Source of the DNA: a virus
Lineage: Duplodnaviria; Caudoviricetes
Length of the DNA: 64,000 nt
Virus record (IMG/VR): IMGVR_UViG_3300031994_000058
Location: 22,688-86,687 of that record
Strand: one strand, 5' to 3'
Below the pieces are notes generated by a model. It saw only the letters and a list, made by a program, of their open reading frames with translations. It had not been told where the DNA came from and did no database searches. Below are positions 11,085-46,418 of the stretch, one piece after another (position 1 is the first letter of the stretch; every line of letters begins with the position of its first letter). Both the position numbers and the translations under genes were made by a program.

Positions 11085-11188
11085 GGATGACCGAGCGGTC
11101 TTCAAAACCGCGTCTCCCGCCAGATTGACCAGCGGGCGTGTTACTCTTACCATACCATTTACGTCCCTGTCAATTCAGGAAGTCATCC
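11085..11188 (-). ncRNA. Promoter-driven tRNA-like structured small RNA (A)
   Basis: Closing stem GGATGAC/GTCATCC; arms TTCCTG/CAGGGA, CCCGC/GCGGG and GCGGT-TTTGAAG-ACCGC; U-tract at 11068-11079; promoter at 11192-11218; no convincing minus-strand ORF. Confidence 0.6.
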
Positions 11189-11533: not shown

Positions 11534-12214
11534 TTAAATAGCAACCGGCTCCGGCAAGTCAATGATCCAAAGACCACTCATCGGAGCTCTTTTAACCGTA
11601 ATCTCAAAGTTCTTGAGATTGTCTTCGTTCCAACCCCACTTCTGTAAGATTGAATTGTTTCGCCTGTCGATGCCTTTCGCATACTCGCCACAAGCATCGT
11701 AATACTCATTGATGGAGCAGCGACCATATTCACAAATATATTCGACAATATAATTCTTAACACTTTCAGCATCGGCATATACCATCGGAATGTTCTGGAA
11801 TCCTGTCAGATAACTTGTCCGTCCATATGTAACGTTCTGTCCGAGTGGCTGATTCTGAGGCTGACGAGTGAGAGCGCTATAGTTTGTACGAGACACTCCA
11901 ACACCAAGCTTGTTCTGTCCGGTGTTAATCTTCGTATCGCCATACAGCGCCATGTCGATAGCGGCCTTTGATGCGTTCGCAACACCATCGATTACCGCAG
12001 GGAGCAACACACCAGTGATGACGAAAGCAGCTACATCCGTGGGATTTCTTCCCTGGAGAAACGTTGACTTGATTTTTCCCCAGAGTCCTGCATTCTTGGG
12101 TTTGGCTGCATCCGAGAGAATAGGACGAGGAATCTCTCGGTGTTTCTCAGCTTCTGCCTGAGCATCCTTGCTTACTTGTGAGTTGGCATACGGGTCGATC
12201 TTATGTTCTGCCAT
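11534..12214 (-). CDS. Conserved-looking phage hypothetical protein
   Basis: EYGRCSINEYYDACG...KWGW...IIDLPEPVAI; AAGGAGG RBS. Confidence 0.7.
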   Translation of the reverse strand: MAEHKIDPYANSQVSKDAQAEAEKHREIPRPILSDAAKPKNAGLWGKIKSTFLQGRNPTDVAAFVITGVLLPAVIDGVANASKAAIDMALYGDTKINTGQNKLGVGVSRTNYSALTRQPQNQPLGQNVTYGRTSYLTGFQNIPMVYADAESVKNYIVEYICEYGRCSINEYYDACGEYAKGIDRRNNSILQKWGWNEDNLKNFEITVKRAPMSGLWIIDLPEPVAI

Positions 12215-12253
12215 TTTGAATACCTCCTTATGGTTGTAAAAAATTTAAAGAAC

Positions 12254-12329
12254 GATGTAAATGACAGGATTCAAACCTGCAATCTATTGCGTTTCAGCAA
12301 TCGTGTTCCCATAACACTTCATTTACATC
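12254..12329 (-). ncRNA. tRNA-like cloverleaf RNA (B) with a 6-nt anticodon loop
   Basis: Acceptor GATGTAAATG/CATTTACATC; D arm GTGT-TATGGGA-ACAC; ATTGC-TGAAAC-GCAAT; variable AGATT; T arm GCAGG-TTTGAAT-CCTGT; no CCA. Confidence 0.7.
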
Positions 12330-12368
12330 ATTCCTACTATAGCGGTTGTAGAATTTGCGAATCACAGC

Positions 12369-13220
12369 TTACCGGTAACTGTGAAATATCGGATCGGCGT
12401 GAAGGTTAATCTTTAAACATGGAATCTCCGTATCCGGTACAAGCGCTGCATCAACAAGATTATCAACGTTAATGAGACCACTCTCGTTAATATCCCAATA
12501 GAACATATCGCCGATGTCTCTGTTTTCAGTAACACCTCTACCATTGCCAGTATCGACAGCAATCTCGTTTAGATCGGCAAGAATCTCGTTCAGACTTACC
12601 TGATCGCCATAATTCAGACGACTGTTGATGCGATTAAATACCGCCTTAACGTCATCAATCTTCGCGACAAATGGTACATTAGTATAAGGTGCTAAGAAGA
12701 TGCTGTACTGAGTATTGATCCCGACATATTCTACGGCTTTCTTATCTGGCGGATTCTTATCGACCTGATCCTGAGCAACCTTCTGGTTGATGAAGCTCAT
12801 CTTCTTTTCACCAACAACTTCCTCGGTCTTTTTCTGGAATTCCTTGAGACTCATATCAGCAATTGTGTAAGCCGCAGACAGAGCCACCTGACGCTTATCC
12901 GAAATATAATCAGACCCGATAATTGCTGCTGCTGAAAGAGCAAAGGAAAGTCCGACACCCCAATACGCAGGGATTACAGCCTTTACGGTTTCGATGGGCG
13001 TGAGTGTAATATCATCAATGTTCGTCACGCTTCCGTCTTCCGATCGATCGGCTGCTTTCTCCGCCTTAGCATTCTTGATACGAAGGTCAGCATCGTCCTT
13101 CTGTTTGATTGCCCAGATAATGGTTCCAAACATTCCGCTGATGCCAAGCGCCGTGAGAATTTTGGGACTATGCTTGACAAGTACTTTCGTCCCACTCTGC
13201 AAGATTTCGTTTACTGCCAT
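12369..13220 (-). CDS. DUF6353-like phage protein
   Basis: KHSPKILTALGISGM...IIGSDYIS.KRQVALSAAY pattern. Confidence 0.7.
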   Translation of the reverse strand: MAVNEILQSGTKVLVKHSPKILTALGISGMFGTIIWAIKQKDDADLRIKNAKAEKAADRSEDGSVTNIDDITLTPIETVKAVIPAYWGVGLSFALSAAAIIGSDYISDKRQVALSAAYTIADMSLKEFQKKTEEVVGEKKMSFINQKVAQDQVDKNPPDKKAVEYVGINTQYSIFLAPYTNVPFVAKIDDVKAVFNRINSRLNYGDQVSLNEILADLNEIAVDTGNGRGVTENRDIGDMFYWDINESGLINVDNLVDAALVPDTEIPCLKINLHADPIFHSYR

Positions 13221-13266
13221 TTTGATTTCCTCCTTGTGGTTGTGAAAAATGAAAAAGATAAAGAAC

Positions 13267-13310
13267 GATGTAAAAGGTGGGATTTGAACCCACTACATTT
13301 CATTTACATC
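13267..13310 (-). ncRNA. tRNA minihelix-like RNA (C): acceptor stem plus T arm
   Basis: GATGTAAA...GTGGG-TTCAAAT-CCCAC-C-TTTTACATC; flanks shared with element B. Confidence 0.6.
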
Positions 13311-13317
13311 ATTCCTA

Positions 13318-13701
13318 CTATGGGAGTTGTTTTGTTTGCGAGAATGGCAGTACTTTGCCTTTCCAACCATCATATCGTTCTTTATCTTTCTCAAATTCTT
13401 TCCGCACCTTTCCAAGAACATCTTCGAGAGATTCCTCGCTATTATGCGGATCATCGCCAGCATTATAAAAACTATATGCGTCAGTCATTCCGAATTCAAA
13501 TCCGCTACACCAAGGGAATAGACGAAATCGGAATCTGGGTCTCTTGTAGAATTGAGACCCAAGGACGATGTCTTCGTGTTTTAGAATTGCAAACCGTCCA
13601 TCATTAACCTTTAGCTTTTTACACGCGTGATAGTACCCTTTTGAATATCCAGAGACATACGCTTGAAATTGAAGTCTAGATTTAAGTTTCTCAAACATCA
13701 T
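13318..13701 (-). CDS. Hypothetical protein
   Basis: Start MMFEK after GAGGAGG; ends in TAG. Confidence 0.55.
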   Translation of the reverse strand: MMFEKLKSRLQFQAYVSGYSKGYYHACKKLKVNDGRFAILKHEDIVLGSQFYKRPRFRFRLFPWCSGFEFGMTDAYSFYNAGDDPHNSEESLEDVLGKVRKEFEKDKERYDGWKGKVLPFSQTKQLP

Positions 13702-14119
13702 CGTCCTCCTCGAGTGGTTCGTCGATAATGGCATCCATGGTGGAGAAAATAAGGCGAAGAATATCTTCTACCTTTCGCATAATTCGACGATTCGGGAAAT
13801 CATAAACGGTCTCCTTATCGTAAATGTTTGCGGCAATAAACTCAACCCAGCAGCCTTTTGCTCTCCACCATTTGTCGTAAAAATATACAACGTCGGCTTC
13901 TGCTAGTTTTTGGATGGATGCTCCAAGATACCATAGACGAGGGGCATTTAATGGGGCATTCTCGTGTTTAATAGTTTGAATAAGTTCGAGTTCGTCGGTC
14001 TCCTTAAGTCGCTCTTCATTTGTAAGGTCCTCTTTCAGAATCTTAAGAGCTTTACTCATATCTTCCTGTACTTCGTTGTCGGGTCGGCCATTCATTTTTA
14101 AACTGATAAACGCTTTCAT
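13691..14119 (-). CDS. Nucleoside 2-deoxyribosyltransferase-like (DUF4406-type) protein
   Basis: AFISLKMNG...LWYLGASIQKLAEADVVYF...W..AKGCWVE. Confidence 0.7.
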   Translation of the reverse strand: MKAFISLKMNGRPDNEVQEDMSKALKILKEDLTNEERLKETDELELIQTIKHENAPLNAPRLWYLGASIQKLAEADVVYFYDKWWRAKGCWVEFIAANIYDKETVYDFPNRRIMRKVEDILRLIFSTMDAIIDEPLEEDDDV

Positions 14120-19377: not shown

Positions 19378-21882
19378 TTACGCCGTACCAGTCCAGTTGA
19401 TTGTAAAGTTCGTAGCTCCCCATCCATTTGCATATCCTGAAATAGCGTTCTCTTTGCGATTGATGTTAAACGTTATACCATCGCAGCCCGCAAACGCGGA
19501 AGAGTTAATAGTCGTCATCGTATTCGGAAGATTAACAGTTACCAAACTTGTACAATTCAGAAATGCGTTGGCGTTAATAGTTCTTAGCACAGGATTAGAT
19601 TCAGAAGAAGGCGTAAAGGTTGTCATATTACTGCATCCTTCAAAAGCGTTCGCGTTGATCGTTGTTACCTTAGGCGGTAATATAAAATTGACAAATCCGA
19701 CACAACCTCTAAAGCAACCGGTGCCGATAGACGTCCATAATGGTGCCGTTATAGAGGTAAGACTTGCGCAACCGTCAAACATATAAGACGAACCACTCGT
19801 TTGTTTAGAAATAGTTGCCGATTGCAAGGCTGCGCAATTCTCAAACGTACTAGCGCCAATGGACGTCGGCATAGAAAGTGTTATCGATGTAAGACTAGTG
19901 CAACCGCTAAAGCACTTCTCTCCAACAGTATAAGTTTTTGCGTTTTCAGTAAACGTCGTCAAACCGGTGCATCCAGCGAATGCTTGGATGCCTACTGCCG
20001 TTACCGCGGTTGGTAAAGTGAAAGACGTTAAAGAAACACAATCCTTGAACGCCGTTTTAGCGATAGTCTTTATAGTAGATTGAAGTTCGATTGACGTAAG
20101 CGCCGAGCATCCCTCAAAGCAAGACTCGCCAATAGTTGTGTATTTTTCACCAATGACTGTTGTAGATGGATTCTCAGTGTTAATCGTAACTGTTTGAAGA
20201 CCGGTACAATGATAAAATCCTAATTTTGGCATAGTTGTGCAATTTCGAGGAAGCATGATGCTAGTTAAACTGGTACAATTTTGGCACATTCCCTCGCCCA
20301 ACGACGTCACTGTTTTAGCGATTGGTAAATCTTCAAGAGCCGTGCAACCAGAGAAAACATAATCACCTATAGTGGTTAGTTTAACTGTTTGTCCATCTGG
20401 AATAACATATTCGAACTTCTCCATGGCAGAGCATCCCTGAAAAACTGAATCGCCAATCGACGTGACTGTATAAGGAATACGTACCGCATCACCTTGAGAT
20501 ACTACAGCATCTATATCGGGGTAGCTGATGTTTTTTAGTTTAGTGCAGTTCTTAAACGTTTCATTGAGAATAGAGGTTATTAATGATGAATAAGTAACGC
20601 TGGTGTTACTGTAATCGACCATTGATACACTAGTCAAATTAATACATCCGTCAAATACACTAGCCTCCAATCGTTTGGTAGATCCAGTACCGCCAACGAT
20701 TGTAATATGATCCAACGCCGTACACCCATAGAATGCGTGATCGCTTGGATATATTACCTTACCAGTTTCAAACGCAATGAGCGATTCACAATTATAGAAA
20801 CCGGCCTGACCAACGACAGTGGGATTTTCTGTAAGAGTTATATCAGTGAGTTTTGAACACCCGCTAAACATATATGCTGACACATTGCCAACAGGAACCG
20901 CATCCGTGTTAAACTTAGGCATTTTAGCTTCGACCAAATTCTCACATCCCATAAACATTGAGTTGTAGTCAGTTGTTTTGGTACTTGCTAATTGTATATC
21001 GTTATTTGCAGGTTCAAGATTCGTTAAATCGACATACGTCAAAGATGTGCAATTTTTAAAAGACGTTGGATAAATGGATATAACGCCCTCAGGGATGACG
21101 AGTCGAGTAATTGCACAATTCTCAAAAGCGTTATTTCCGATCACATAGATAGACGATGTTATGATATTGCTGACATCGGTAAGGCCTGTACCTTTAAACA
21201 TATTGTCAGAAATGAACCACAAATTTTCCGGCATGTCGACCGTCGTTAATGATTCGCAACCCTCAAACATCGACTCATAGTGCTCCTGTGCATATTCGGC
21301 GGGCCACGTAGAGCTAGCTCCGGAGGTTCTCTCCTGATTTATCTCAGTGACTGTTTTAATGTTTACAGTAGTCGGCAGATCGATCTCAGTAATTGATTTG
21401 CAACCTTTGAAACAGTGTTTTCCGAATGTAATTTTATTGTCCGGAATCTCGATCTCAAGAAGACTTTCACAATTTAAGAAGGCATCATCCTGGATTTCCA
21501 TCGTGCCTTCAGGAATAACTACCGACTCGATAGAAGTAATGCCCTTGAACGCTTCACTGCCGATTACTGTACATTCGGTGGGAATAATCGCACTAATAGT
21601 GTTCGTGCTAAGTCTAAAAGTGGTTGGGTCACTAAGAAATATCGCACCGCTACTGCTTCCGCCTTCTTGTTGAGAAAGCTTGTAAAGAGCGTCGTGAATA
21701 GCCATGCGGATGTCTTTTCCATACGTACTTTCACGAATAGTAGTCAGCTCACCTTTAATTGCCGATCCAGGATACATAAGTTTTACCAGCTTCTCTAAAG
21801 CCGAATCAACGTTATTTAGGACGTCTTCACCACCAGATTTAGACTTTATAGCCTCAAGCTGAGAACTAATATCAACTGCCAT
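19378..21882 (-). CDS. BspA-type (TpLRR/LRR_5) leucine-rich repeat protein, 834 aa
   Basis: Many repeats of the L..I.IP..V..IG..AF.GC..L type; N-terminal YGKDIRMAIHDAL; C-cap GWGA..FTINW. Confidence 0.92.
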   Translation of the reverse strand: MAVDISSQLEAIKSKSGGEDVLNNVDSALEKLVKLMYPGSAIKGELTTIRESTYGKDIRMAIHDALYKLSQQEGGSSSGAIFLSDPTTFRLSTNTISAIIPTECTVIGSEAFKGITSIESVVIPEGTMEIQDDAFLNCESLLEIEIPDNKITFGKHCFKGCKSITEIDLPTTVNIKTVTEINQERTSGASSTWPAEYAQEHYESMFEGCESLTTVDMPENLWFISDNMFKGTGLTDVSNIITSSIYVIGNNAFENCAITRLVIPEGVISIYPTSFKNCTSLTYVDLTNLEPANNDIQLASTKTTDYNSMFMGCENLVEAKMPKFNTDAVPVGNVSAYMFSGCSKLTDITLTENPTVVGQAGFYNCESLIAFETGKVIYPSDHAFYGCTALDHITIVGGTGSTKRLEASVFDGCINLTSVSMVDYSNTSVTYSSLITSILNETFKNCTKLKNISYPDIDAVVSQGDAVRIPYTVTSIGDSVFQGCSAMEKFEYVIPDGQTVKLTTIGDYVFSGCTALEDLPIAKTVTSLGEGMCQNCTSLTSIMLPRNCTTMPKLGFYHCTGLQTVTINTENPSTTVIGEKYTTIGESCFEGCSALTSIELQSTIKTIAKTAFKDCVSLTSFTLPTAVTAVGIQAFAGCTGLTTFTENAKTYTVGEKCFSGCTSLTSITLSMPTSIGASTFENCAALQSATISKQTSGSSYMFDGCASLTSITAPLWTSIGTGCFRGCVGFVNFILPPKVTTINANAFEGCSNMTTFTPSSESNPVLRTINANAFLNCTSLVTVNLPNTMTTINSSAFAGCDGITFNINRKENAISGYANGWGATNFTINWTGTA

Positions 21883-21902: not shown

Positions 21903-22679
21903 TTATGGATCCCACACGACGGTCGCAAATCTAGCGCCCCATGGAGCATAGGAAGAACCTACTACCTGGTCGGCAGACTTGTGAACTACAATCGTATTAA
22001 TATTAGTACAATTATAAAAAGCCTGCTGCTGTATTTCCAAAATAGACGATGGTATCTCTACAGTTCCGCGAATGTTAGAGCAGTTAGCAAAGCAACCGTC
22101 CATTAAAGTTTCAATACCATCTTCAAACGCGAGCTCTCGAATCATGGAATATTGCAAGCATCCGCCATATATAGTTTTTATATTACCAGGAATGGGACCA
22201 CCAATATCTTCGATATTACCATAGTTCCAAGAAGACGCCGCGTATACACCGGGCTTTATAGCATTTATACTTCTAGGAAAATTTACTTTTTTAAGTAACG
22301 GACAACCACTCATAAAGCTATTGCCCATATCGGTTATTGCATCACTAACATGACAGGCGAGTACGGTGCTAAATGAAGAATATAGGTTTGCAGTTAGAGC
22401 CACAGGTTCAATTTGTGATCCAAAATATAGCCCTAGTCTTTTGTACCAGGTCCATCTTCTGAGAGCGTTTGACACCTCTGAATGATCTGTAGATGCTAAT
22501 AAAACCTCAGTAGGTTCTAACGATCCGTTTAATATCGTGATACTTATTTTAGTCTCATCTATTAACACTGGAGGGTCTACCGGAGTGAATCTTTGCCATA
22601 AAAGCTCATTATCTTTGTAGATCTTCTTTAATGGTATCTGTCCATAATAGATGGATGAGTTATATATCGTCATTATCAA
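21903..22679 (-). CDS. BspA-type LRR protein with phage-fibre-like N-terminus
   Basis: IYYGQIPLKKIYKDNELLW; LRR units; C-cap APWGARFATVVW. Confidence 0.8.
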   Translation of the reverse strand: MIMTIYNSSIYYGQIPLKKIYKDNELLWQRFTPVDPPVLIDETKISITILNGSLEPTEVLLASTDHSEVSNALRRWTWYKRLGLYFGSQIEPVALTANLYSSFSTVLACHVSDAITDMGNSFMSGCPLLKKVNFPRSINAIKPGVYAASSWNYGNIEDIGGPIPGNIKTIYGGCLQYSMIRELAFEDGIETLMDGCFANCSNIRGTVEIPSSILEIQQQAFYNCTNINTIVVHKSADQVVGSSYAPWGARFATVVWDP

Positions 22680-24415
22680 TTACCTCCAAGCCATCTAATC
22701 TCGCAATCTTCTGGCAAATATGCTGTATAGGCTTTCGGCGTCCACGGATTTCCATTAGAATCAACTATACTTCCTTCTGTGCGATTTATATTTATTCTTT
22801 TTAAAGCCCTACAACCGGCGAACACTCTCGGATTGCTTGGATCATCAAAAATTTGTTCAACAGCATTACCTATAGTAACTGATTCTAGTGAACTACAACC
22901 ATTAAAAGCCCCACCGCCAATATATGTCGGGCCATTGGGTATACTGATCGTTTTTAAACTTCTGCAAGATTCGAAAGCCGCTGCTCCGATACTAGCTACG
23001 CTGCTAGGAATGGATACCGATTCTAATGCAATACAATGTCCGCATACATAGTTGCTAATATCAGTGAGGTGTGGAGGAAAGGCCAGAGAAGTAAGTGATT
23101 GACAATTATAAAACGCAAACGCCTCTATTGACGTTAGAGACTCCGGAAGAACCAAATTATCTAAAAGCGTACATCCCCAAAATGCATGATCTTTGATGGT
23201 TATTAGATTATCAGACAAGCTGATGGCAGTCATACTTTCACAAGACTCAAACGCTTTTGTTCCGATCGTTTGTACAGAGTTAGGTATGCTTATATAAGGC
23301 AATGATGTACACTCGGCGAACGCTCTCGCTCCTATATCTTTAAATGCTGGTTCATCCTGCAACACCACAGTTGTTAAGGCATAACAATTGTCGAAGCATG
23401 CTTCTGGTATTGAAATCTGATTACCGGGATGAAATACAACGGTTTTTAAATTAGAACACATCATGAACGATCCTATGCCCAAATATGATATACTCGCGAG
23501 CTCTATTCGCTCCAAGGAATAACAATCTCTGAATGTCTCGTTCCCTATATGGGTCACATTTGACAAGTCGATATCTTTAAGCGCCATGCAATATGCAAAA
23601 GCGTTATTGTTTAGATAATATGCATTGTTCAAATCGACAGTAGTTAATCCCTCACATCTATAAAAAGCATTGGACTCTACATCGGTTATTGAATCCGTAA
23701 ATACAACATCATCAAGAAGCCTGTCATATTCGAACATATTATACGTTACTCGTGTCATCGATTCTCCGAATGTAACATTAGTCAGGTATTCGTTCCAGCT
23801 ATATTCGTGTCCCCTAGTTGATGAGTGAATATATCGATTCGGTATTACCACTTCGCTAAGTTTTGTATTATGAAACGCGGATCTCTCTATGAATAATCCG
23901 ATATCAGACTCCGTATACGTAACATATCGAAGTGTACTTCCAGTAAATGCATATTCGCGAATAGCTGTAATTGTACCAGGAACATGAAATGCAAGAATGT
24001 TTTTGCAGGTTTGAAATGTTCTATTAGGAACTTCGGTCACTCCACACTCTTCACCAATCCAAATTCGATACATAATGTTTGGATCATTCTCGTAATACTC
24101 ATCGAGCTTGGCACGGGCTTCGGCGAGCGTCTTACAATAGAAAACATCATCGGTATCCGCATCACCATCCAACATGATTACCGAAATCCAATAATCTTTC
24201 CACACCGGTTCTGTGGGATCATATATACAATATGCAACGTTTTGCTCCTTTACTTCTAAAGCATCATACTCCTCTTGCGTTACAAGTTTTTTCGTGGTTG
24301 CTCGAAGTCCATGGTTGTAAAGAATCCAAAGAGCATCTGAAATAGGTCCTCGAATATCTTTACCATACGTACCTTTGCGAATTTCCCGTCCTTGTCCCTC
24401 TATATATACTGCCAT
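22676..24415 (-). CDS. BspA-type LRR protein, 579 aa
   Basis: YGKDIRGPISDAL, TQEEYDALEVKEQNVAYCI, then about 15 LRR units. Confidence 0.92.
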   Translation of the reverse strand: MAVYIEGQGREIRKGTYGKDIRGPISDALWILYNHGLRATTKKLVTQEEYDALEVKEQNVAYCIYDPTEPVWKDYWISVIMLDGDADTDDVFYCKTLAEARAKLDEYYENDPNIMYRIWIGEECGVTEVPNRTFQTCKNILAFHVPGTITAIREYAFTGSTLRYVTYTESDIGLFIERSAFHNTKLSEVVIPNRYIHSSTRGHEYSWNEYLTNVTFGESMTRVTYNMFEYDRLLDDVVFTDSITDVESNAFYRCEGLTTVDLNNAYYLNNNAFAYCMALKDIDLSNVTHIGNETFRDCYSLERIELASISYLGIGSFMMCSNLKTVVFHPGNQISIPEACFDNCYALTTVVLQDEPAFKDIGARAFAECTSLPYISIPNSVQTIGTKAFESCESMTAISLSDNLITIKDHAFWGCTLLDNLVLPESLTSIEAFAFYNCQSLTSLAFPPHLTDISNYVCGHCIALESVSIPSSVASIGAAAFESCRSLKTISIPNGPTYIGGGAFNGCSSLESVTIGNAVEQIFDDPSNPRVFAGCRALKRININRTEGSIVDSNGNPWTPKAYTAYLPEDCEIRWLGGN

Positions 24416-33000: not shown

Positions 33001-36000
33001 CGTGATTATACCTTGCATCATTCGGCCATCGACGTCATCCTTCGTAAGAGCAGCCACAACAATTATAGCGGGAATTAAGAGGTCAACAGCCAATGCTAAA
33101 CTGGTTATAACAACCGACATTGCTAAAAGTGCTTCAATTGCCTTTGAGAGTTTCTTTGCGTTAGTATGTGTTGCCATATACTCTGTGAGATACATAATAC
33201 CAGCCATTATACCGCCAAGTATAATAACGATAGTAGACACAGCTGTAAATGCGTCCAACAGTTTAGTTCGAGGAATCTTGGCCAATTTAGTCATAGCATT
33301 CACTATGATTTCTATCGCACCGCCAATAGCCAGAATAGCAACTGCAAGCGATGTAAACACTCCGCTCGGCCCCTCAGACTTTGTCGCAAAACCAAGGAAT
33401 TTGGTTATGGATTTAGAATCAAGCTTCTTTGCCGCTTCAGCGAATGTGTATACTAAAACGCCAAGAAGACCCATGAGAATAACAACGATACCAACAGCTA
33501 TAACAAGTCTTTGCATTCCCTCTGTTGTACTAAGGTCAATGTCCTTAATCATCGTGTTAACCTGACTTAACGCACTAGCAATAGCCAAAGCAAACCCGGC
33601 GATTGCCAAAATCATGGCAGCGACACCAAGAGTTCCGGCATCAATGTTCGCGGTATTATTAGATAACAGCGTTAATGTTTTATTACCGGAGTTGCTAATT
33701 TTTGTACGATTGATGGATGTTAGGCTGGTGTTCATCTTTGACACAATCTTAGCAAAGATGGCAAAGAATGTGCCAAGAATTACCATTGCTGCTATACCCT
33801 GTGACAATTCATTTTCTGGAAGTTTACCAAGGAGAATTACAGCACCAGCAACAGCGACCAATGCATATACATAAGACTCAATAACCTGTGCCTGAGTAAT
33901 CTGTTGTAAAGAGGTCTTTGCCTGCGCGACGGTACCTTTTACGTTTGCCACTACGTCATTGAAATTCGAGAAGATGTCAGCAATACTAAGCGGAACCTTA
34001 GCAAGCTTATCAAGCGCGTCACTGAGATTCTTCGTGCCTTTGCGGAATTCAACCAAACCCCAAATGATAGCGAACAAAGACGTGATAGTCTTAAGCTTCT
34101 CCCAGTCAATCTCAGTATTCTTAAAGAAATTGGTGACAGCTTCACCAATACCAGTCAATACATTTCCAAAGAATTTCGCACTACCACGAGTAACTTCCTC
34201 AGAATCAGTATTACCAAGAACGCCAGAAAGGCTAGTGCTCATCTGTGAGAAAATGTCTTTATTACCAGAACGAGTATCGCCACTGCCATTTTGAATTTTA
34301 TCAATAAATGCATCAACCCAAGAGATGACGTTAGCGATTCCTGTTACAAGATTGTTAAACCCGGTAGCGAGAAGTTCAACAACGCCAAGAAGAACGTTAA
34401 GCCAACTGAATGAACCTTCACCCTTCTTTCCCTCATTGACAAGAGAACTCATGGCTCTGTCCGGAGCCTTGGCGTTGTCTTTACCAAACAGATTTGAGAT
34501 TGCTGTCGATAAGTTGCTAAGAACTGTGCTAACATTCTGAAAAACCTTTGAGTTTGTGATGTAATCTTTGACAGTATTAGCAAGGTTTACAACCCAAGTG
34601 ACTGCTTTAGAAATTACACCAATTACTACTTTGCCGACATCAATAATTCCGCCGATAATTTCTTTGGCTTTCTCAAACGCTTGCGTCAAACCATAAATAA
34701 ATGCTTCAACAGCAATGTCGTCATCTGCGAACGAAGTGAGAACATCTCCGATAGCCGCTAGAATGTCCAAGAACGTCGGAAGAACATTTTTTGTAGCAAC
34801 TTTTAACGTTTTACCAAACAGTTTCGATACGAGCTTTGTGACAATTCTCAGCATTGCCGCAATACCAGAAAAGATTCTAGTAATACGATCGTTCTCGTTT
34901 AGCGCTTGTCGAACGCTATTAATGCCATCAATAAGCCCAGAAAGCGCATTTCTCACAATGTCTAAAATATCAATGTCACCAAATACATTATGAAAAGCGT
35001 CACTCCCTGCCTTTCCGAAATCTCGGATTACACCTGTGAAAGTATTAAACAGCGTGACAAGCTGAGAAACAATCGCACGGACCTTGAGCAGTCCTCCATT
35101 CGCTACCGTATCCGTAATTGTTCGAGCTACATTTGCGATAGGGTCAAGAATCCAATGCACAATGTTTTTGAGCCCCGAATTTTTCTTCATGGACTGCCCA
35201 AACTGATCAATTGCCGAACGAATCATTTCTACCAGAGACCAGAATCCGAGAAAAATATCATAGATCGTATGGTAAACAGAATCGTCAAAGAACACTTCAC
35301 GAATGGCATCTGCAACTCCACCAAGAACTTTACCAAGTTTAGAAGACATACGAACAATGCCGCTTTCTTCTTCCTCTACTTCTTCGAGCCCTTCACTTAC
35401 GGATTCACCAACGGTATAGCCATCCTTGACCATCTGCTCATGGACCTCATCGAGCGATTTCTTTGAGCCATATGCAATCTGATTGACATGCTTTTGTACA
35501 TACTTTGGGTCTAATCCAAGCGCCTCAAGCGCACGTACACGAGCCTCGCCATTACCAAAACTACCCTTAGTCCAAATATCAGACACGGCCTGAAAAGCTT
35601 TCTCGACATACTCGCTGGCTTCCTGAGCGGCTTCACTAACTTCGTCGATTGTCTCTTCAACAGCGCCAAATGCATCCTTTACAGAGTAAATGGCATCGTA
35701 AAGACCACTGTTCGTAAAAGCGTTGGTAAACGCCTCATGATAGGATGAGAATGCATCACCAACTGCCTTAACAATTCTAAGGAAATTATACCAAATATCA
35801 GCAAGCTTTCCAAGAATACCATTAGTTGCACTGGCTTCCAAGCGATCTGTAAAGTTATGGAATGGATTAAGAATCTCTTGGATTTTTGTACTATTCATCT
35901 CGCCGAATACATCCGTCCAGCCTTGTTTTATAGCTTCAGTAAAGGCGGCAACAGTGTCCATAATCTGGTAAAGGCTTTTACGGAATCTATCGAATCCTTT

Positions 36001-39658: not shown

Positions 39659-40011
39659 TAGTCGTTACCTCCTCCCATGAGATACATAAGAATAAAAAGC
39701 CAAAGCACGTCCCGCGAAGAATCAGACTTAAACACATTGGGAATGTTTGTCTCCTCGATTCGGTTTTCAAAGCTGGGGAGATTGTACTTGATGTCGAACG
39801 TTGTTGCTCGTGCGATGAGAACGGACAGATACTTGCCCATTGTGTCGTACTGTTCCTGAAGCAAAGAATACTCGGGTGAATCCTCACCGATTTTCTTCAT
39901 ATGCTTCTCGAGACCATACATACGAAGATCACACTGTTCGATCTCTGCGACGAGCCGCTCCTTCCAGTCGTCTGACATCATTCCGTCAATGGTGTCTCTT
40001 AAAGTCTTCAT
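39658..40011 (-). CDS. Small coiled-coil phage protein (crAss001_48-like)
   Basis: TIDGMMSDDWKERLVAE...LQEQYDTMGKYLSVLIARA. Confidence 0.55.
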   Translation of the reverse strand: MKTLRDTIDGMMSDDWKERLVAEIEQCDLRMYGLEKHMKKIGEDSPEYSLLQEQYDTMGKYLSVLIARATTFDIKYNLPSFENRIEETNIPNVFKSDSSRDVLWLFILMYLMGGGND

Positions 40012-41059
40012 ATGAAATTCCTCCTTTTATTATAGCTTTTAAAAGCCTTATAAATTTTAGTTTTAGATATCGATTTTTGAGTTCTCTTGTGGTGGTGATA
40101 GTTAATAATGACAATCGTGAAAGCATTCCGGACGCCATCTTAGAGGTCAGAACTAAGTTATTACGGATCCTGGAATGAAGAGATCTGTACTTTCTTTTAA
40201 GACGTAATAGAACCGGTTTTCGAAGCATAAATCTGGTCCCTTGATACCGGTAACCAAGAGCCGATACGGGACGAGATGATACTTTGTACACTTGCCAGTT
40301 AGGTTTTAACCGTAAACAAATGCCGTTTAAGTAATCGGATATGGCCCGAACTACTTTATGGAGCATTCTCTTATTAGAATGAAAAAGTGTTAAATTGTCC
40401 ATATAACGAAGATAATGCGGTACATGAAGAACCTCACGAATGTAATGATCGAGAGGTTGAAGAAGGACATTCGCGAACCATTGACTATGGAATGCGCCTA
40501 TCATTACACCATCCTGTATTGATATTTTTATCAATTTCATCACTCGCTCATCATTTATAAGACTTCGAAATCGACTTTCTATAATTGATGGTAAAATGGA
40601 CTCATAAAAATGATGAATGTCGAGTTCTGCACAATATTTGGTATGCTTTGGATCATTTTTCAGCCATTTACGAATACCAGTTTGTCCGCGTTTTAGACCT
40701 CGACCTTTAATCGAACCGCAGCACCAATAGTCCATTCCTCGCATCATTACGGGCATCAAAGCCTGTACAAGCATATGGTGGATGTACTGGTCGGGCCATA
40801 ATTTAGGCTCTGTTATAGTTCGAATCTTCTTGGCGTTGTGGTCATATCGCCTAGTGACTTTTGGTCTACTTGGCTTAAATCCCTTTATTACGATGTTTCG
40901 TAACTCTCTAACACGCTCTTCTAATGTAGCTTCTATCCATATCACGGTTCGATTAAGACCCTTACGTGTGCGCCTGTGGGATTTGTTTACGTCTCTAATC
41001 GCTTGTTTAATGTTGTCATCGCTAATTAATATGGGAAAGAGATTCTTTACTCTCTTCAT
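39986..41059 (-). CDS. DGR reverse transcriptase (YMDN variant)
   Basis: PDQYIHH, GSIKGRG, ELDIHHFYESI, GVMIGAFHSQWFAN, HYLRYMDNL; adjacent TR/VR pair. Confidence 0.92.
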   Translation of the reverse strand: MKRVKNLFPILISDDNIKQAIRDVNKSHRRTRKGLNRTVIWIEATLEERVRELRNIVIKGFKPSRPKVTRRYDHNAKKIRTITEPKLWPDQYIHHMLVQALMPVMMRGMDYWCCGSIKGRGLKRGQTGIRKWLKNDPKHTKYCAELDIHHFYESILPSIIESRFRSLINDERVMKLIKISIQDGVMIGAFHSQWFANVLLQPLDHYIREVLHVPHYLRYMDNLTLFHSNKRMLHKVVRAISDYLNGICLRLKPNWQVYKVSSRPVSALGYRYQGTRFMLRKPVLLRLKRKYRSLHSRIRNNLVLTSKMASGMLSRLSLLTITTTRELKNRYLKLKFIRLLKAIIKGGISYEDFKRHH

Positions 41060-41195
41060 GAGGTGTTTGCTTCCTTGTTGCTTTTTATGGATGTTCGCGG
41101 ATTTACGTTACTAGTCCATACCCATTTAAGCAAAATTTTCACCAAGTGGTGTGCGAAAGGCCGCGCCGAGTAGAATATAAAAAGTGCAAACAAGT

Positions 41196-41446: not shown

Positions 41447-42883
41447 TCAAATGGGTAATTTCTGGAGACGAGCGCCGATGCTACCGCCCGAGTCCGAAGA
41501 ACCGTTATTGCCGCCCAGATAGAACATACCATAGCCCCGGTACTGGCCGTAGTTACCGCCAACGCAGAGAACCACACCAGACGAATCATAGTAACAGTAA
41601 TCGGCGATGTAAGTAGAATAACTCGAGTCTGATACGATAGAAGACGGATATAATGCCCATTCGTAGTCGGTGGCTGTCGGAACGCCGAAAGCACTGATAC
41701 AGCCAGACGAGGTGTATCTTGTACCAGTGTTAGTACCACCAGAAGAATCGGAATACGTAGAGGGGTTAAGATAAGTGTAAATCGAAGAAGATGAAAATCT
41801 AATACCATCACACCAATCGAGGACATTATCCCAGATACCCTCGATATACCGGTATTGGGTTGAAGCGGCATAAGTCGTTCTGGAAGAAGCCATTGTACCA
41901 GTATGGTAGGGCATAGAGTCAGTATAACCCATCGTTACGACGGACGAGCCATTACCACATCCATAGCCTATTACTTTCTGAGAATCCCAATCGGCGAATT
42001 CCACAATGTAAAGCATCCGGATGGTCCAGAACATAGCAAAATCAAATTGCCAATAGTCAGATCCCAGGTTATGAATGCTGGTTCTTGCGGTGGATCTTGT
42101 GATGGAAACCTTAGGCGAAGAACCGGATGTGGACTTATAGTTAGTCGAAGAACAATGGTACCGTCCTACATACACATAATCCCGTTCTCCAACACCATCA
42201 CCTCTGTCCATATGGGCAGGAGAGACAGAAAAGCCTTCAACGGGGCCATTTGCGATCTGAAACGTCATGGCAGAACCGGTTTTCGTGATTTTATACCAGA
42301 ATTTAGGAATCTCAACGAGTTCGTTTCCATCTAGAGTCACTCTTCGTATTCCAGACCAAGGCATAACATCGTCGAAGGGCGAATATCCGGGATGATTGTT
42401 GTCATTAACATATGGGTCTGGATTAGAGAAAGACGCAGCATCGTCTGTTCTGGTCATAGTGGTAGTGGAAGAACCATCCCAAAATACGCCAAAGGTCTGA
42501 GTAAATGCAAGACTTGTTGTGTATGTCGTATAATCATCTACCACAACAGTCTTTGTGACGCTATCACCATCCAGTTCCATCGTACATGTCCACGTGCCGA
42601 GGTTGACAAGATAGGTTTTCGGGGTTCCGTCGGATGTGTACGTGTGGGTGGTGGTGCCATCTGTCAGAGTCACTTCGCCACCTTCAACTGCTGTTACAGC
42701 GAGCTTAGCGAAGGCGAGACTAACGGACTGCGTGGTGTTGGTTGTGGTGGTCTCGATGTATTTCGTTTCAGAGGTCGCACCTTGGAGAGAGGCATTGACC
42801 TGATAGAGACCAGGGTCATCGATATGGAGAACCGCATTGCCGGAAGAGTCGGCAGTGGCGGTGTATATTTTTGGTAGACTCAT
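41447..42883 (-). CDS. DGR target: tail fibre/receptor-binding protein with C-terminal C-type-lectin-like VR domain
   Basis: IEGIWDNVLDWCDG...VGGNYG...IGARL; carries VR1 at the extreme C-terminus. Confidence 0.9.
   Translation of the reverse strand: MSLPKIYTATADSSGNAVLHIDDPGLYQVNASLQGATSETKYIETTTTNTTQSVSLAFAKLAVTAVEGGEVTLTDGTTTHTYTSDGTPKTYLVNLGTWTCTMELDGDSVTKTVVVDDYTTYTTSLAFTQTFGVFWDGSSTTTMTRTDDAASFSNPDPYVNDNNHPGYSPFDDVMPWSGIRRVTLDGNELVEIPKFWYKITKTGSAMTFQIANGPVEGFSVSPAHMDRGDGVGERDYVYVGRYHCSSTNYKSTSGSSPKVSITRSTARTSIHNLGSDYWQFDFAMFWTIRMLYIVEFADWDSQKVIGYGCGNGSSVVTMGYTDSMPYHTGTMASSRTTYAASTQYRYIEGIWDNVLDWCDGIRFSSSSIYTYLNPSTYSDSSGGTNTGTRYTSSGCISAFGVPTATDYEWALYPSSIVSDSSYSTYIADYCYYDSSGVVLCVGGNYGQYRGYGMFYLGGNNGSSDSGGSIGARLQKLPI
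41466..41607 (-). repeat. DGR variable repeat (VR1)
   Basis: 16 mismatches to TR, all at TR A (13 A>G, 3 A>T on the coding strand), no indels. Confidence 0.95.
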
Positions 42884-42899
42884 GTTAATTCACCTCGCT

Positions 42900-44399
42900 T
42901 TAGGAATTGGGTGGGAGGTACAGAAGGCGAGCGCCAACGAACGTGTCATAGTCCGACGAGCCGACGTCACCGCGCAAGCAGAACAAGCCGTAGCCCAGGT
43001 ACTGGCTATAGTTACCACCGAAGTGCAGCACCACACCGGAACTGTAATAGTACACACGATCACAACAATAAGTAGCATAATTACTGTCACTATATACATC
43101 ACTGGGATATACAAAACATTCATAGCCACTTACTGTGCTGTCTTTCCATGCTTTAATCTCATTAGAAGAAGTTGGTCTAGTACCAACCAACGTTCCTCCA
43201 CTACTATCAGAAAAATTAGCAGGATTCTTAATGGCATAAATATTAGCGCTAGAAAAATAAATACCATCTACCCAGTCCAATACGTTTCCCCATAAATCTT
43301 CAATCCATCTATATTGTGTACCAACACCATATGTTGTTCGAGAAGATTTCATGGTGCCTGTGTGGTAAGGCATACTATCAGAAGCACCGAGGTTTTCAGT
43401 TGCTGAGTTATTACCACATCCATAGCCTATCTTTGCTTGAGAATTCCAGTGCGCGAATTCTACAAGGTATAAATACCAAATGGAGATCAGGGTCATCATA
43501 TCAAACTGGCAATATCCAGTACCTCTACCAGAACATCCACTTCTTGCCGTAGATCTGGTAATACTTGCAAGAGGTTTCACACCAGAAATTGATTTATAAC
43601 CAGTACTTACATGATATCTGGATACGTATACATAATCTCTTTCTCCCTTACCATCACCACGATCTTGATGAGCCGGAGATACAGAGAATCCAGCAGTTGC
43701 TTTATCTGCAATTTGGATTTTTCTTTTTGTACCAGTTGTGGTAACCTTAACCCAGAATTTAGGAATCTTTACAAATACATCTGTACCAATTGTTTCTTTT
43801 ACCATACCACTCCATGGCATGAGGTCATCAAATGGTGAACTACCAGGATGGTTTCCGTCATTCACGTATGGATCGGGATTATCAAATTCGGCAGCGTCAT
43901 CTGTCCGTGTCAATGTCGTTTCTGAGCCGCCGTCCCACTCGACTCCGTATATATGACCAAATCCAATCTTCATTTCATATTCTTTGACATCATCAATATC
44001 AATTTGCTTCGTATAAGTATCGCTGCCGTCAATAGCTGTCACTGTCCATGTCCCTGAAAACGGAAGCATGAAGGTAACTGCGGTAGTCTCACCGGCACCT
44101 GTACCTGTCAGTACCGTATACCCGTCTGTGATGTTCAAAGCAGAATTCGTCGGTGCATACACCTTAAGAACATAAGAAACACGAGTTGCGGTGACAACTG
44201 CGCTGGGTTCAGTGGTGACATTCACGGTAGATTTGAAACTGGACTCGCCGCCTGCCGGAATCGTCAGAATATCATCGGGAAACTCCTCAAATCCGTCCCC
44301 AGTATTAACCGTGCCACCCATCGTTGTGATAGCATTGGCGATATCGGTCTTAGCGGTTACTAAGCGGCTAAGGTTTTCTGCGATTGTGTGTTCTGGCAT
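42900..44399 (-). CDS. Paralogous fibre with a diverged VR-like C-terminus
   Basis: Shares TRTDDAA.F.NPDPYVND.NHPG.SPFDD.MPWSG and the lectin-like end with 41447..42883. Confidence 0.88.
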   Translation of the reverse strand: MPEHTIAENLSRLVTAKTDIANAITTMGGTVNTGDGFEEFPDDILTIPAGGESSFKSTVNVTTEPSAVVTATRVSYVLKVYAPTNSALNITDGYTVLTGTGAGETTAVTFMLPFSGTWTVTAIDGSDTYTKQIDIDDVKEYEMKIGFGHIYGVEWDGGSETTLTRTDDAAEFDNPDPYVNDGNHPGSSPFDDLMPWSGMVKETIGTDVFVKIPKFWVKVTTTGTKRKIQIADKATAGFSVSPAHQDRGDGKGERDYVYVSRYHVSTGYKSISGVKPLASITRSTARSGCSGRGTGYCQFDMMTLISIWYLYLVEFAHWNSQAKIGYGCGNNSATENLGASDSMPYHTGTMKSSRTTYGVGTQYRWIEDLWGNVLDWVDGIYFSSANIYAIKNPANFSDSSGGTLVGTRPTSSNEIKAWKDSTVSGYECFVYPSDVYSDSNYATYCCDRVYYYSSGVVLHFGGNYSQYLGYGLFCLRGDVGSSDYDTFVGARLLYLPPNS

Positions 44400-45062: not shown

Positions 45063-45929
45063 TTACGTGTTGTTTTCGGGAGTAACGTAGTCGGAATCGG
45101 TGCCAACAGTGAAGTTGGTAATATTACCGGTTGCAGTGTTGGAACCGGTAGAGGTAAGCTCCTCGCCAGTGAATGCCAGCTTAACAGAAGTACCAGCCAG
45201 GTTTACAGTCTGAGTGCCGGTAGCATCTACAGTAACATCAGTTACAATGCTCTTAGCAGTGAAGGACGGCAGAGTAACATCAGTAGGCGTACCACCATTG
45301 AAAGTGCCCTTGTCGAAGGTGATGGTGAGGGTCTCAGCCTCAGAGCCAGTACCAAGAGATGCAGTCAGGCTCGGATCAACGGTGAAGGATGCTGCAGTAC
45401 CAGCGGTTACGGAGCCACCACCAGTAGCACTTGTAGCAACATAGTTGCCAGTAGCCTCAGTGGTAGGAGTTACAGTAGTAACCGGGCAAGCTACAGTACC
45501 AGCAGGGGTGTAGGTCGTGCCGACGCCAGTGGACGGGTTTACGTTAACAGCACCTGCCGGAGTGCCCTTTACCGTAGCAGTGAATGCAGTACCCTCGAAA
45601 GTAGCGGAACCAGTGCCAGTGGGCTTAGTGTAAGAAGCCTTGTCGTAGTATGCCAGATCGCCAAGGGTGGACATATCACCAAACTCATGCCACTTGCTGT
45701 CAGAGGAAGAGTAGATGAATTCCTTACCGGAGTAGATTGCCAGCATACCATTCTTGGCAGTTACACTTTCGCTGCCGATAGTGATCGTGGAGGTGGATGC
45801 GCCGTCAGTCAGAGCAGTGGTAGTAATACCAGCATAGATGACGCCACCAGCGGCTGTCTGTCGAGCTACGGAGTCCTTGATCTCATACGTAGTGCCATTG
45901 AGTTTAATTTTACTTACTTCGTTTGCCAT
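45063..45929 (-). CDS. Thr/Gly-rich fibre- or decoration-like protein
   Basis: ISKIKLNGTTYEIKDSVARQ fibre N-terminal motif; TPAGTV repeats. Confidence 0.7.
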   Translation of the reverse strand: MANEVSKIKLNGTTYEIKDSVARQTAAGGVIYAGITTTALTDGASTSTITIGSESVTAKNGMLAIYSGKEFIYSSSDSKWHEFGDMSTLGDLAYYDKASYTKPTGTGSATFEGTAFTATVKGTPAGAVNVNPSTGVGTTYTPAGTVACPVTTVTPTTEATGNYVATSATGGGSVTAGTAASFTVDPSLTASLGTGSEAETLTITFDKGTFNGGTPTDVTLPSFTAKSIVTDVTVDATGTQTVNLAGTSVKLAFTGEELTSTGSNTATGNITNFTVGTDSDYVTPENNT

Positions 45930-45944
45930 AGCGATTAGCCTCCT

Positions 45945-46418
45945 TTAAGACTTTGTGATGATGAGTGTTTCGGCGTCGTCAATATCCATATAGGCAGTGA
46001 CTTTATTATTCCAAAAATCGCGTTCTGCTTCCGTAATGGTACCAGACGCTACAAACGGCATATCGATAAGTCTCGTCACACCATCTCCGACCTTTAAAGC
46101 AGCAATCTCAACCCCGCTGGAAGTTGTCATATAGTCTGTGTAGACATAAATGACATCCTTATCTGTCACGAGGTCAACGAGATAGTTCCACTCAGCAGTC
46201 GTTTTGGACAGCACCGGCTTGTTAGCAACCGCGATTTCCGAAATTCGTTCGTTGAGGTTCACATATGTTCCGCGAGCTTCCGTTACTTCGTCGGTAACAG
46301 ATTTTAAACCCGCCTTAACCTCTGTGTCGTCGTAGTTTTCGAGTCCTACTGTTTTGTCCAGAAGGTCGTCGATTTGTTTACCTGTATATTTGAGCACGTA
46401 GTCTGCCATGAAGCTCAC
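45945..46418 (-). CDS. Fibre-associated protein (Mtd/hyaluronidase N-terminal-like)
   Basis: YTGKQIDDLL, EVTEARG, IYVYTDY...LKVGDGVTRLIDMPF. Confidence 0.6.
   Translation of the reverse strand: MSFMADYVLKYTGKQIDDLLDKTVGLENYDDTEVKAGLKSVTDEVTEARGTYVNLNERISEIAVANKPVLSKTTAEWNYLVDLVTDKDVIYVYTDYMTTSSGVEIAALKVGDGVTRLIDMPFVASGTITEAERDFWNNKVTAYMDIDDAETLIITKS

Follow-up and report, generated by a model that had tools for sequence, protein, structure and literature searches.

The stretch of DNA analyzed here (referred to as the window; 64,000 nucleotides) spans bases 22688-86687 of a complete 86.7-kb phage record from IMG/VR, referred to as G000, and coordinates are those of the window unless otherwise stated. 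The genome encodes tail, large terminase, and portal proteins and a reverse transcriptase with an RT-18 RNA; tyrosine and serine recombinases were sought as possible integrases in the complete record, and none was found. The feature of interest, referred to as minihelix C, lies between the gene for a 138-amino-acid (aa) protein (13318-13734) and the gene for a 283-aa DUF6353 protein (12369-13220), and all genes flanking it are on the minus strand. Approximately 1 kb downstream is a full-length paralogue of C with a cloverleaf fold, referred to as element B (12249-12360 with its promoter, minus strand).

Elsewhere in the window, the RT-18 RNA (41071-41151, minus strand; 59 bits, above the cutoff) is located 12 nt 5' of the start codon of the reverse transcriptase gene on the same strand (39986-41059, minus strand; PHROG E-value of 3e-67), and two paralogous tail protein genes (41447-42883 and 42900-44399) adjoin the pair. 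Our guess is that the RT-18 RNA, the reverse transcriptase, and the tail paralogues form a diversity-generating retroelement. Two large paralogous proteins composed of BspA-type leucine-rich repeats (LRR_5 E-values of 2e-119 and 5e-83) are encoded at 19378-21882 and 22676-24415 (both minus strand), with the early cassette region on one side and the tail genes on the other.

DNA-level comparisons covered G000 and two relatives only: G001 (50 kb; DUF6353 at 77% aa identity) and G002 (91 kb; DUF6353 at 52% aa identity). The local gene order around the site of C is identical in all three genomes, and the site lies between homologues of the 138-aa gene and DUF6353 in each. Other DUF6353 homologues are known as proteins, at 97, 81, 62, and 58% identity (approximately 54 to 62% for the more distant ones); G001 is thus the closest relative among the genomes compared, the 97% and 81% proteins being closer and compared by protein only. 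An exact 17-mer search of viral contigs gave 60 loci, of which G001 was the only related one, and among the matches listed for two gapped patterns of the helix arms, there were only G001 and chance matches. A 20-mer search of genome contigs gave two chance matches, both in Bacteroidota MAGs. Protein-guided scans of viral and metagenome contigs with DUF6353, its alignment, and the 138-aa protein recovered G001, G002, and no other contig except the distant L304, at 25% identity, and an annotated phage collection held no DNA match and only protein matches below 32% identity.

Read along the minus strand, the region opens with promoter box 1 (TCGCA; 13337-13341), which overlaps the last codons of the 138-aa gene. 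A 16-nt spacer leads to box 2 (13315-13320) in the variant form TAGTAG, the usual forms being TAATAG and TTATAG; the first TAG of box 2 is also the stop codon of the 138-aa gene. The 5' arm of an 8-bp base helix, an extension of the acceptor stem found in both the pair table and the fold, occupies 13308-13315. Covariance-model alignment places the 5' strand of the acceptor stem (tRNA positions 1 to 7) at 13301-13307. Next comes a 7-nt linker (13294-13300) that aligns with positions 8 and 9 and what is left of the 5' strand of the D stem, followed by the T arm (13277-13293), with a 5-bp Watson-Crick stem and a 7-nt loop, UUCAAAU, closed by G53-C61. The 3' strand of the acceptor stem (positions 66 to 72) and the discriminator A73 lie at 13269-13276; positions 6 and 67 form a U.U mismatch. 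The base after A73 is U, and CCA is not encoded. The 3' arm of the base helix spans 13262-13269, in which A73 (13269) pairs with U-1. A U-rich tract (13245-13261) then leads to the Shine-Dalgarno (SD) sequence of the DUF6353 gene (13229-13235) and its ATG at 13220. The bases directly after the helix are U, U, A, U, and C, so that the tract, although U-rich, does not open with a run of U; the helix, for its length, is rich in A and U.

The whole helix of C (13315-13262, minus strand) is a 15-bp stem with 14 of 15 positions paired that encloses the linker and the T arm. It folds at -20.8 kcal/mol with a z-score of -4.96, none of 200 shuffles folding as well, and is both the minimum-energy and the centroid structure. 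Eleven of the 12 pairs of the acceptor and T stems form, all but the U.U at 6:67, and the two stems are separated by a bulge of 7 nt on the 5' side. Leader and trailer pair for 8 bp, including U-1:A73, and the flanks of the potential cleavage sites are consequently not unpaired. An earlier note made from the sequence alone had placed the minihelix at 13267-13310 and described a 9-nt linker and a T arm as all that is left beyond the acceptor stem: the helix is real but reaches 13315 and 13262, and the T arm is as described, with a linker of 7 nt if G7-C66 is counted as a pair and of 9 nt if it is not. The terminator scan listed only the T arm of C, with a poor tail; its loop limit of 8 nt made the base helix unscorable.

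An inverted repeat of 31 nt (81% complementary, 16-nt perfect core) has one arm at 13363-13393, inside the 138-aa gene, and the other at 13250-13280, reaching from the 3' side of the minihelix into the U-rich tract. If transcription reads through, the two arms would pair in a longer outer helix that replaces the base helix. We rejected this repeat as a conserved switch, as it is absent in G001 and G002.

The likeness of C to tRNA (RF00005) lies in the acceptor stem, the T stem, and the T loop, and the model aligns 13269-13307 from position 1 to position 71 with 33 positions of the D and anticodon region deleted. The alignment scores 24.0 bits (E-value of 4.5e-4 per genome), under the gathering cutoff of 29 bits, and ARAGORN called nothing at C. 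C is therefore not a four-arm cloverleaf: it has no D arm, anticodon arm, or variable loop, its acceptor end is held in the 8-bp extension, and it cannot decode. Its T arm, at 13293-13277, carries the complete signature G53-U54-U55-C56-R57-A58...C61. A scan of the three genomes for canonical T arms found only promoter-driven elements, with C the sole minihelix among them, which argues that minihelices are not a repeated device here. Recognition of the acceptor/T-arm half and the elbow by RNase P, RNase Z, and the CCA enzyme is established (PMC4810234).

The earlier note also held that C is a paralogue of element B, with the same promoter variant and extended acceptor stem but with the D and anticodon arms removed, and this is borne out by the direct repeats and by the B-C alignment that it proposed. 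The flanks in that alignment are near-identical and are interrupted by a single 32-column gap that spans the D and anticodon arms of B. Both elements have the TAGTAG form of box 2, a 15-bp stem with an identical 5' arm and a 3' arm differing at one base, the same discriminator context, and a motif before the SD that occurs only twice in the window. The direct repeats that flank DUF6353 measure 53, 53, and 39 nt at 79-81% identity. B itself (12256-12326) scores 50.9 bits with RF00005 and is reported by ARAGORN as "tRNA-???," with a 6-nt anticodon loop. The T stems of B and C differ at three pairs, two of which have changed on both sides, so C is not a simple or fresh deletion of the present-day B. 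The linker of C resembles the 5' side of the D arm (positions 8 to 13) of B and of an element in G002 referred to as X, and it is unlike the G002 element at the orthologous site. Loss of approximately positions 14 to 48 from a B-type ancestor is thus the simplest path, with the linker as the apparent scar of the deletion; its endpoints are ambiguous because a short G-G-U-U stretch is common to the D loop and the T stem.

Several other leaders in these phages are built in a related manner. In both G000 and G001, elements A and B are complete in all arms and show compensatory changes. Element A (11085-11188, minus strand; L005:4466-4572 in G001) has a promoter, a base helix that starts from box 2, a multiarm interior with a T-loop-like arm, and a U run, and G001 retains it, with one stem showing a compensatory change. 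The 6-nt anticodon loop is found in B (12256-12326), in B of G001 (L005:3381-3455), and in X of G002 (L307:132-207, minus strand), and the anticodon and T stems of all three stay paired via compensatory changes; from these sequences, the short loop looks like a conserved trait and not like decay. The T arm of X appears at both 158 and 91083 of the 91-kb G002 record, so the ends of this record overlap, and it is probably circularly permuted or terminally redundant. Outside the window, a second DUF6353 paralogue of 378 aa (G000:C1:10297-11433; L320:2298-3434) has a leader built as that of C is, with a plain 8-bp hairpin in place of the tRNA-like part. Another hairpin outside the window (G000:C1:3575-3620; L003) follows a promoter of the same class, has a 5' arm like that of B and C except at 2 of 15 positions, and possibly represents a further decayed relative of the B/C leader. 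Between DUF6353 and the homologue of the 226-aa gene p226 in G002, there is no counterpart of B. In G000, p226 (11534-12214, minus strand) is 95.6% identical to 45372-46052 of G001, compared with 70-81% for its neighbors, which suggests that the p226 cassette was recently exchanged between the two lineages.

The site of C exists in three states: a full four-arm element in G002, the minihelix in G000, and a bare hairpin in G001. The G002 element has a D-like arm, a 6- to 7-bp stem with a 5- to 7-nt loop, and a canonical T arm, all inside a 14- to 15-bp helix, and is weakly tRNA-like by the covariance model. In G001, an 11-bp hairpin forms from the same base-stem arms, followed by a U-rich tract and an SD, with neither a T arm nor an acceptor stem. 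The 5' arm of the extension is identical in C, B, B of G001, and this G001 hairpin. The base helix covaries, as three pairs have changed on both sides between G000 and G002, and swaps between G-C and G.U keep it paired in G001; the G.U pairs fit an RNA of the minus strand only. The promoter, a helix at the likely transcription start, the U-rich spacer, and the SD are constant in all three phages.

The promoter belongs to a class with many members. Matches to its motif (TCGCA, a 16-nt gap, and a TAATAG/TTATAG-type box 2) number 26 (stricter pattern) to 32 (looser pattern) on the minus strand of G000, and the looser pattern has 35 and 18 coding-strand matches in the two relatives; nearly all matches precede genes. 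In several copies, the SD abuts box 2 with no gap, so transcription must start at the end of box 2, and for C, we infer a start at or just after the last G of box 2 (approximately 13315). The helices of C, B, and A all begin with this last G. Among 73 leaders of the class in the three phages, 52% open with a hairpin of -3 kcal/mol or lower within 3 nt of the end of box 2, compared with 25% of random windows (P = 6e-7), which makes a 5'-end helix the rule in this phage group. A/U-rich spacers also follow the 5' hairpins of many other leaders of the class. A sigma-70-type promoter was rejected, since a box 2 that abuts the SD cannot be a -10 box at normal distance. We found no phage sigma region 2 or large RNA polymerase among the scanned open reading frames (ORFs) of at least 300 aa (a set without the largest, of 2,392 aa), and the 697-aa and 352-aa ORFs match no Pfam family. 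Two minus-strand promoters of the class in G002, at 33504 and 11542, are followed by long stretches with no SD nearby; these may be further structured RNAs.

The explanation that we favor, with middling confidence, is that C is an internal-deletion remnant of a B-type tRNA-like RNA, held in a conserved helix of the 5' leader that probably has a protective function at the mRNA 5' end. The insert at this site is full, half, or absent while the promoter, helix, spacer, and SD stay constant, and this is what leads us to read C as a remnant. The deletion would have taken roughly positions 14 to 48, that is, the D loop, the 3' strand of the D stem, the anticodon arm, and the variable loop, along a path suggested by the linker. 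The remnant would now occupy the loop position of a long helix in which the start of the DUF6353 transcript pairs with the stretch that precedes the U-rich spacer and SD. The working unit would then be the entire leader, with its phage-specific promoter, a helix from the probable +1, a U-rich spacer, and a strong SD. Protection of the 5' end is, in our analysis, the most likely function of the helix, which would shield the mRNA from 5'-end-dependent decay by RppH and then RNase J1 or RNase E, a route that needs unpaired 5' nucleotides. RppH of Bacillus subtilis requires at least two unpaired 5' nucleotides, and the ompA, papA, and aprE mRNAs are stabilized by 5' stem-loops (PMC3997798). The acceptor/T-arm part would extend the helix to approximately 20 stacked pairs and would still resemble the top half of a tRNA, but would be a passenger that this site can do without; whatever role the tRNA-like RNAs have would fall to the full-length copies, B and A, the latter of a different build. 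In this view, B, C, and A are each a 5' helix with a tRNA-shaped insert in its loop.

Signs of relaxed constraint in C are the U.U in the acceptor stem, the 7-nt bulge, and the score below the tRNA cutoff. Other features count against a remnant. The T arm of C is perfect and G+C-rich and keeps every signature base of the T loop, and its paired compensating changes relative to B and to B of G001 could indicate selection on the T arm since the deletion, although they may be older than it. The combination of a long helix with a U-rich tract behind it is compatible with an attenuator as well. The direction of change, with the insert lost and not gained, is taken from parsimony over three taxa. As a side matter, RNase III substrates span about two helical turns. 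RNase III cleavage was rejected as a general mechanism, as the base helices of the family, at 10 to 15 bp, are under this length.

The main competitor, which we regard as possible but unlikely, is that the acceptor/T-arm half is itself the functional unit, as the earlier note suggested for these leaders in general. Acting in cis, it would be a signal for RNase P cleavage before 13307 and RNase Z cleavage after 13269 that frees or destabilizes the DUF6353 mRNA; acting in trans, the excised and CCA-tailed piece of approximately 40 nt would be a mimic of, or a decoy for, readers of the tRNA top half or 3' end. The canonical T loop, the perfect T stem, the 11 of 12 pairs, the U at -1, the A73 followed by U without CCA, and the end-to-end alignment with the model are all as this would predict, and the enzymes that act on tRNA ends do read the elbow and the top half (PMC4810234). 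Signals of tRNA-like shape that direct the cutting of mRNAs have a precedent in plant mitochondrial t-elements (PMC1920247), and phage tRNAs are reported to be counterdefense tools (PMC11555353). No terminator precedes the B or C promoter, so read-through RNAs would hold the element internally. However, at the orthologous site of G001, the half is gone and the gene, promoter, and base helix remain, and conservation in relatives, whose absence the earlier note had named as counting against its reading, there extends to the base of the helix only. G002 has a full four-arm element at the same site, A and B keep all arms in G000 and G001, and the leader of the second DUF6353 paralogue is a plain hairpin. 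The cut sites in C are buried in the 8-bp leader-trailer helix with U-1:A73 paired, unlike a normal substrate of RNase P or RNase Z with a free acceptor end. There is no D loop with which to form the elbow, the bulge breaks the stack, the U.U mismatch weakens the case further, and C is the only minihelix in three genomes. The claim that the top half is the functional unit of these leaders therefore did not hold up. A more specific version, which we find less probable again, is that C is a minimal tRNA mimic. RNase P and RNase Z, or else termination with trimming, would release it, and a CCA tail would be added; it would then either mark a cut that decides what becomes of the DUF6353 mRNA or act as a decoy for those host proteins that recognize the top half or 3' end of tRNA. 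The hairpin, half, and full states would in that case be alternative working solutions and not stages of decay.

Somewhat less probable still is that the helix and the U-rich tract act as an attenuator or terminator that halts part of the transcripts, yields a short promoter-proximal RNA, and throttles DUF6353. Such a structure would also stop transcripts that read through from the 138-aa gene, as no terminator separates the stop codon of this gene from the promoter. In C, B, A, and the counterparts in G001 and G002, the helix is followed by a U-rich tract, and in A and X of G002, a run of 6 to 8 U directly follows a helix closed by G-C pairs. The helices of C and B, however, are followed by U, U, A and no U run, and their base is rich in A/U and G.U pairs. 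The evident terminators of the phage are short G+C-rich hairpins with 6 to 8 U that lie upstream of promoters and not downstream, and leaders with nothing more than small hairpins also have comparable A/U-rich spacers before the SD.

We give little weight to a mainly DNA-level module, in which the promoter-plus-stem repeats that flank DUF6353 provide homology for the shuffling or deletion of cassettes and the minihelix is a by-product. The direct repeats of approximately 40 to 50 nt at approximately 80% identity, the missing B between DUF6353 and the p226 homologue in G002, and the apparent recent exchange of p226, at 95.6% identity between G000 and G001 against 77% for its neighbors, all agree with such a module, for which the promoter early stem-loop (PeSL) cassettes of T4-type phages are a precedent (PMC2839356, PMC4122927). 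It leaves unexplained both the covariation and G.U pairs of the RNA helix and the intact T-loop signature, and it is compatible with a role of the helix at the RNA level rather than a rival to it. Fragments of tRNA genes are usually 5' or 3' halves left by integration. Partial tRNA genes are reported to be common in prokaryote genomes (PMC9897764), and C is likewise a partial tRNA-derived sequence, scoring under tRNA thresholds, but we consider an attP/attB remnant of site-specific integration or a chance hairpin highly improbable, given that no tyrosine or serine recombinase was detected in the complete phage record and that C retains both acceptor strands around an internal deletion and is not a 3' half, has a promoter and a paralogue of its own, and gives a fold z-score of -4.96 and a covariance-model E-value of 4.5e-4.

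If C is a remnant within a protective leader helix, its nearest functional parallels are the stabilizers of ompA, papA, and aprE (PMC3997798), with which it shares a helix that begins at the probable first base, lies upstream of a strong SD, and is conserved in structure. Those stabilizers are simple hairpins, whereas C has 15 to 20 bp and carries a tRNA-derived insert, and the likeness is drawn from sequence. Plant mitochondrial t-elements (PMC1920247) and mascRNA/menRNA (RF01684) are tRNA-like pieces of longer transcripts that are cut by RNase P and RNase Z. C is likewise a tRNA-like top half with no decoding role, embedded in a longer RNA, here an mRNA leader next to the coding region. The ends of those RNAs have been mapped, whereas C is known as a sequence that follows a promoter at +1, has paired ends, and is absent in G001, the closest relative among the genomes compared. 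PeSL cassettes resemble the C region as short, repeated intergenic modules of promoter and stem-loop among small variable genes in a plastic region; they differ in being described as composites of terminator and early-type promoter, whereas in C, the stem-loop follows a promoter of another type. No recombination products or junctions were seen at the repeats flanking DUF6353 in the genomes compared.

These comparisons have implications for how tRNA-like sequences in phages are interpreted. Not every tRNA-like half in a phage intergenic region should be read as functional. If the minihelix is in fact processed, it would be a bacterial-virus counterpart of the mitochondrial t-elements. The three phages amount to a natural deletion series at one site, with a full element, a top half, and a bare hairpin between unchanged flanking genes and behind an unchanged promoter, and this series supplies ready constructs for asking whether the element is processed, whether it stabilizes the message, and whether it acts in trans. 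The series suggests that the part of these tRNA-like leaders needed in cis is the 5' helix and not the tRNA half.
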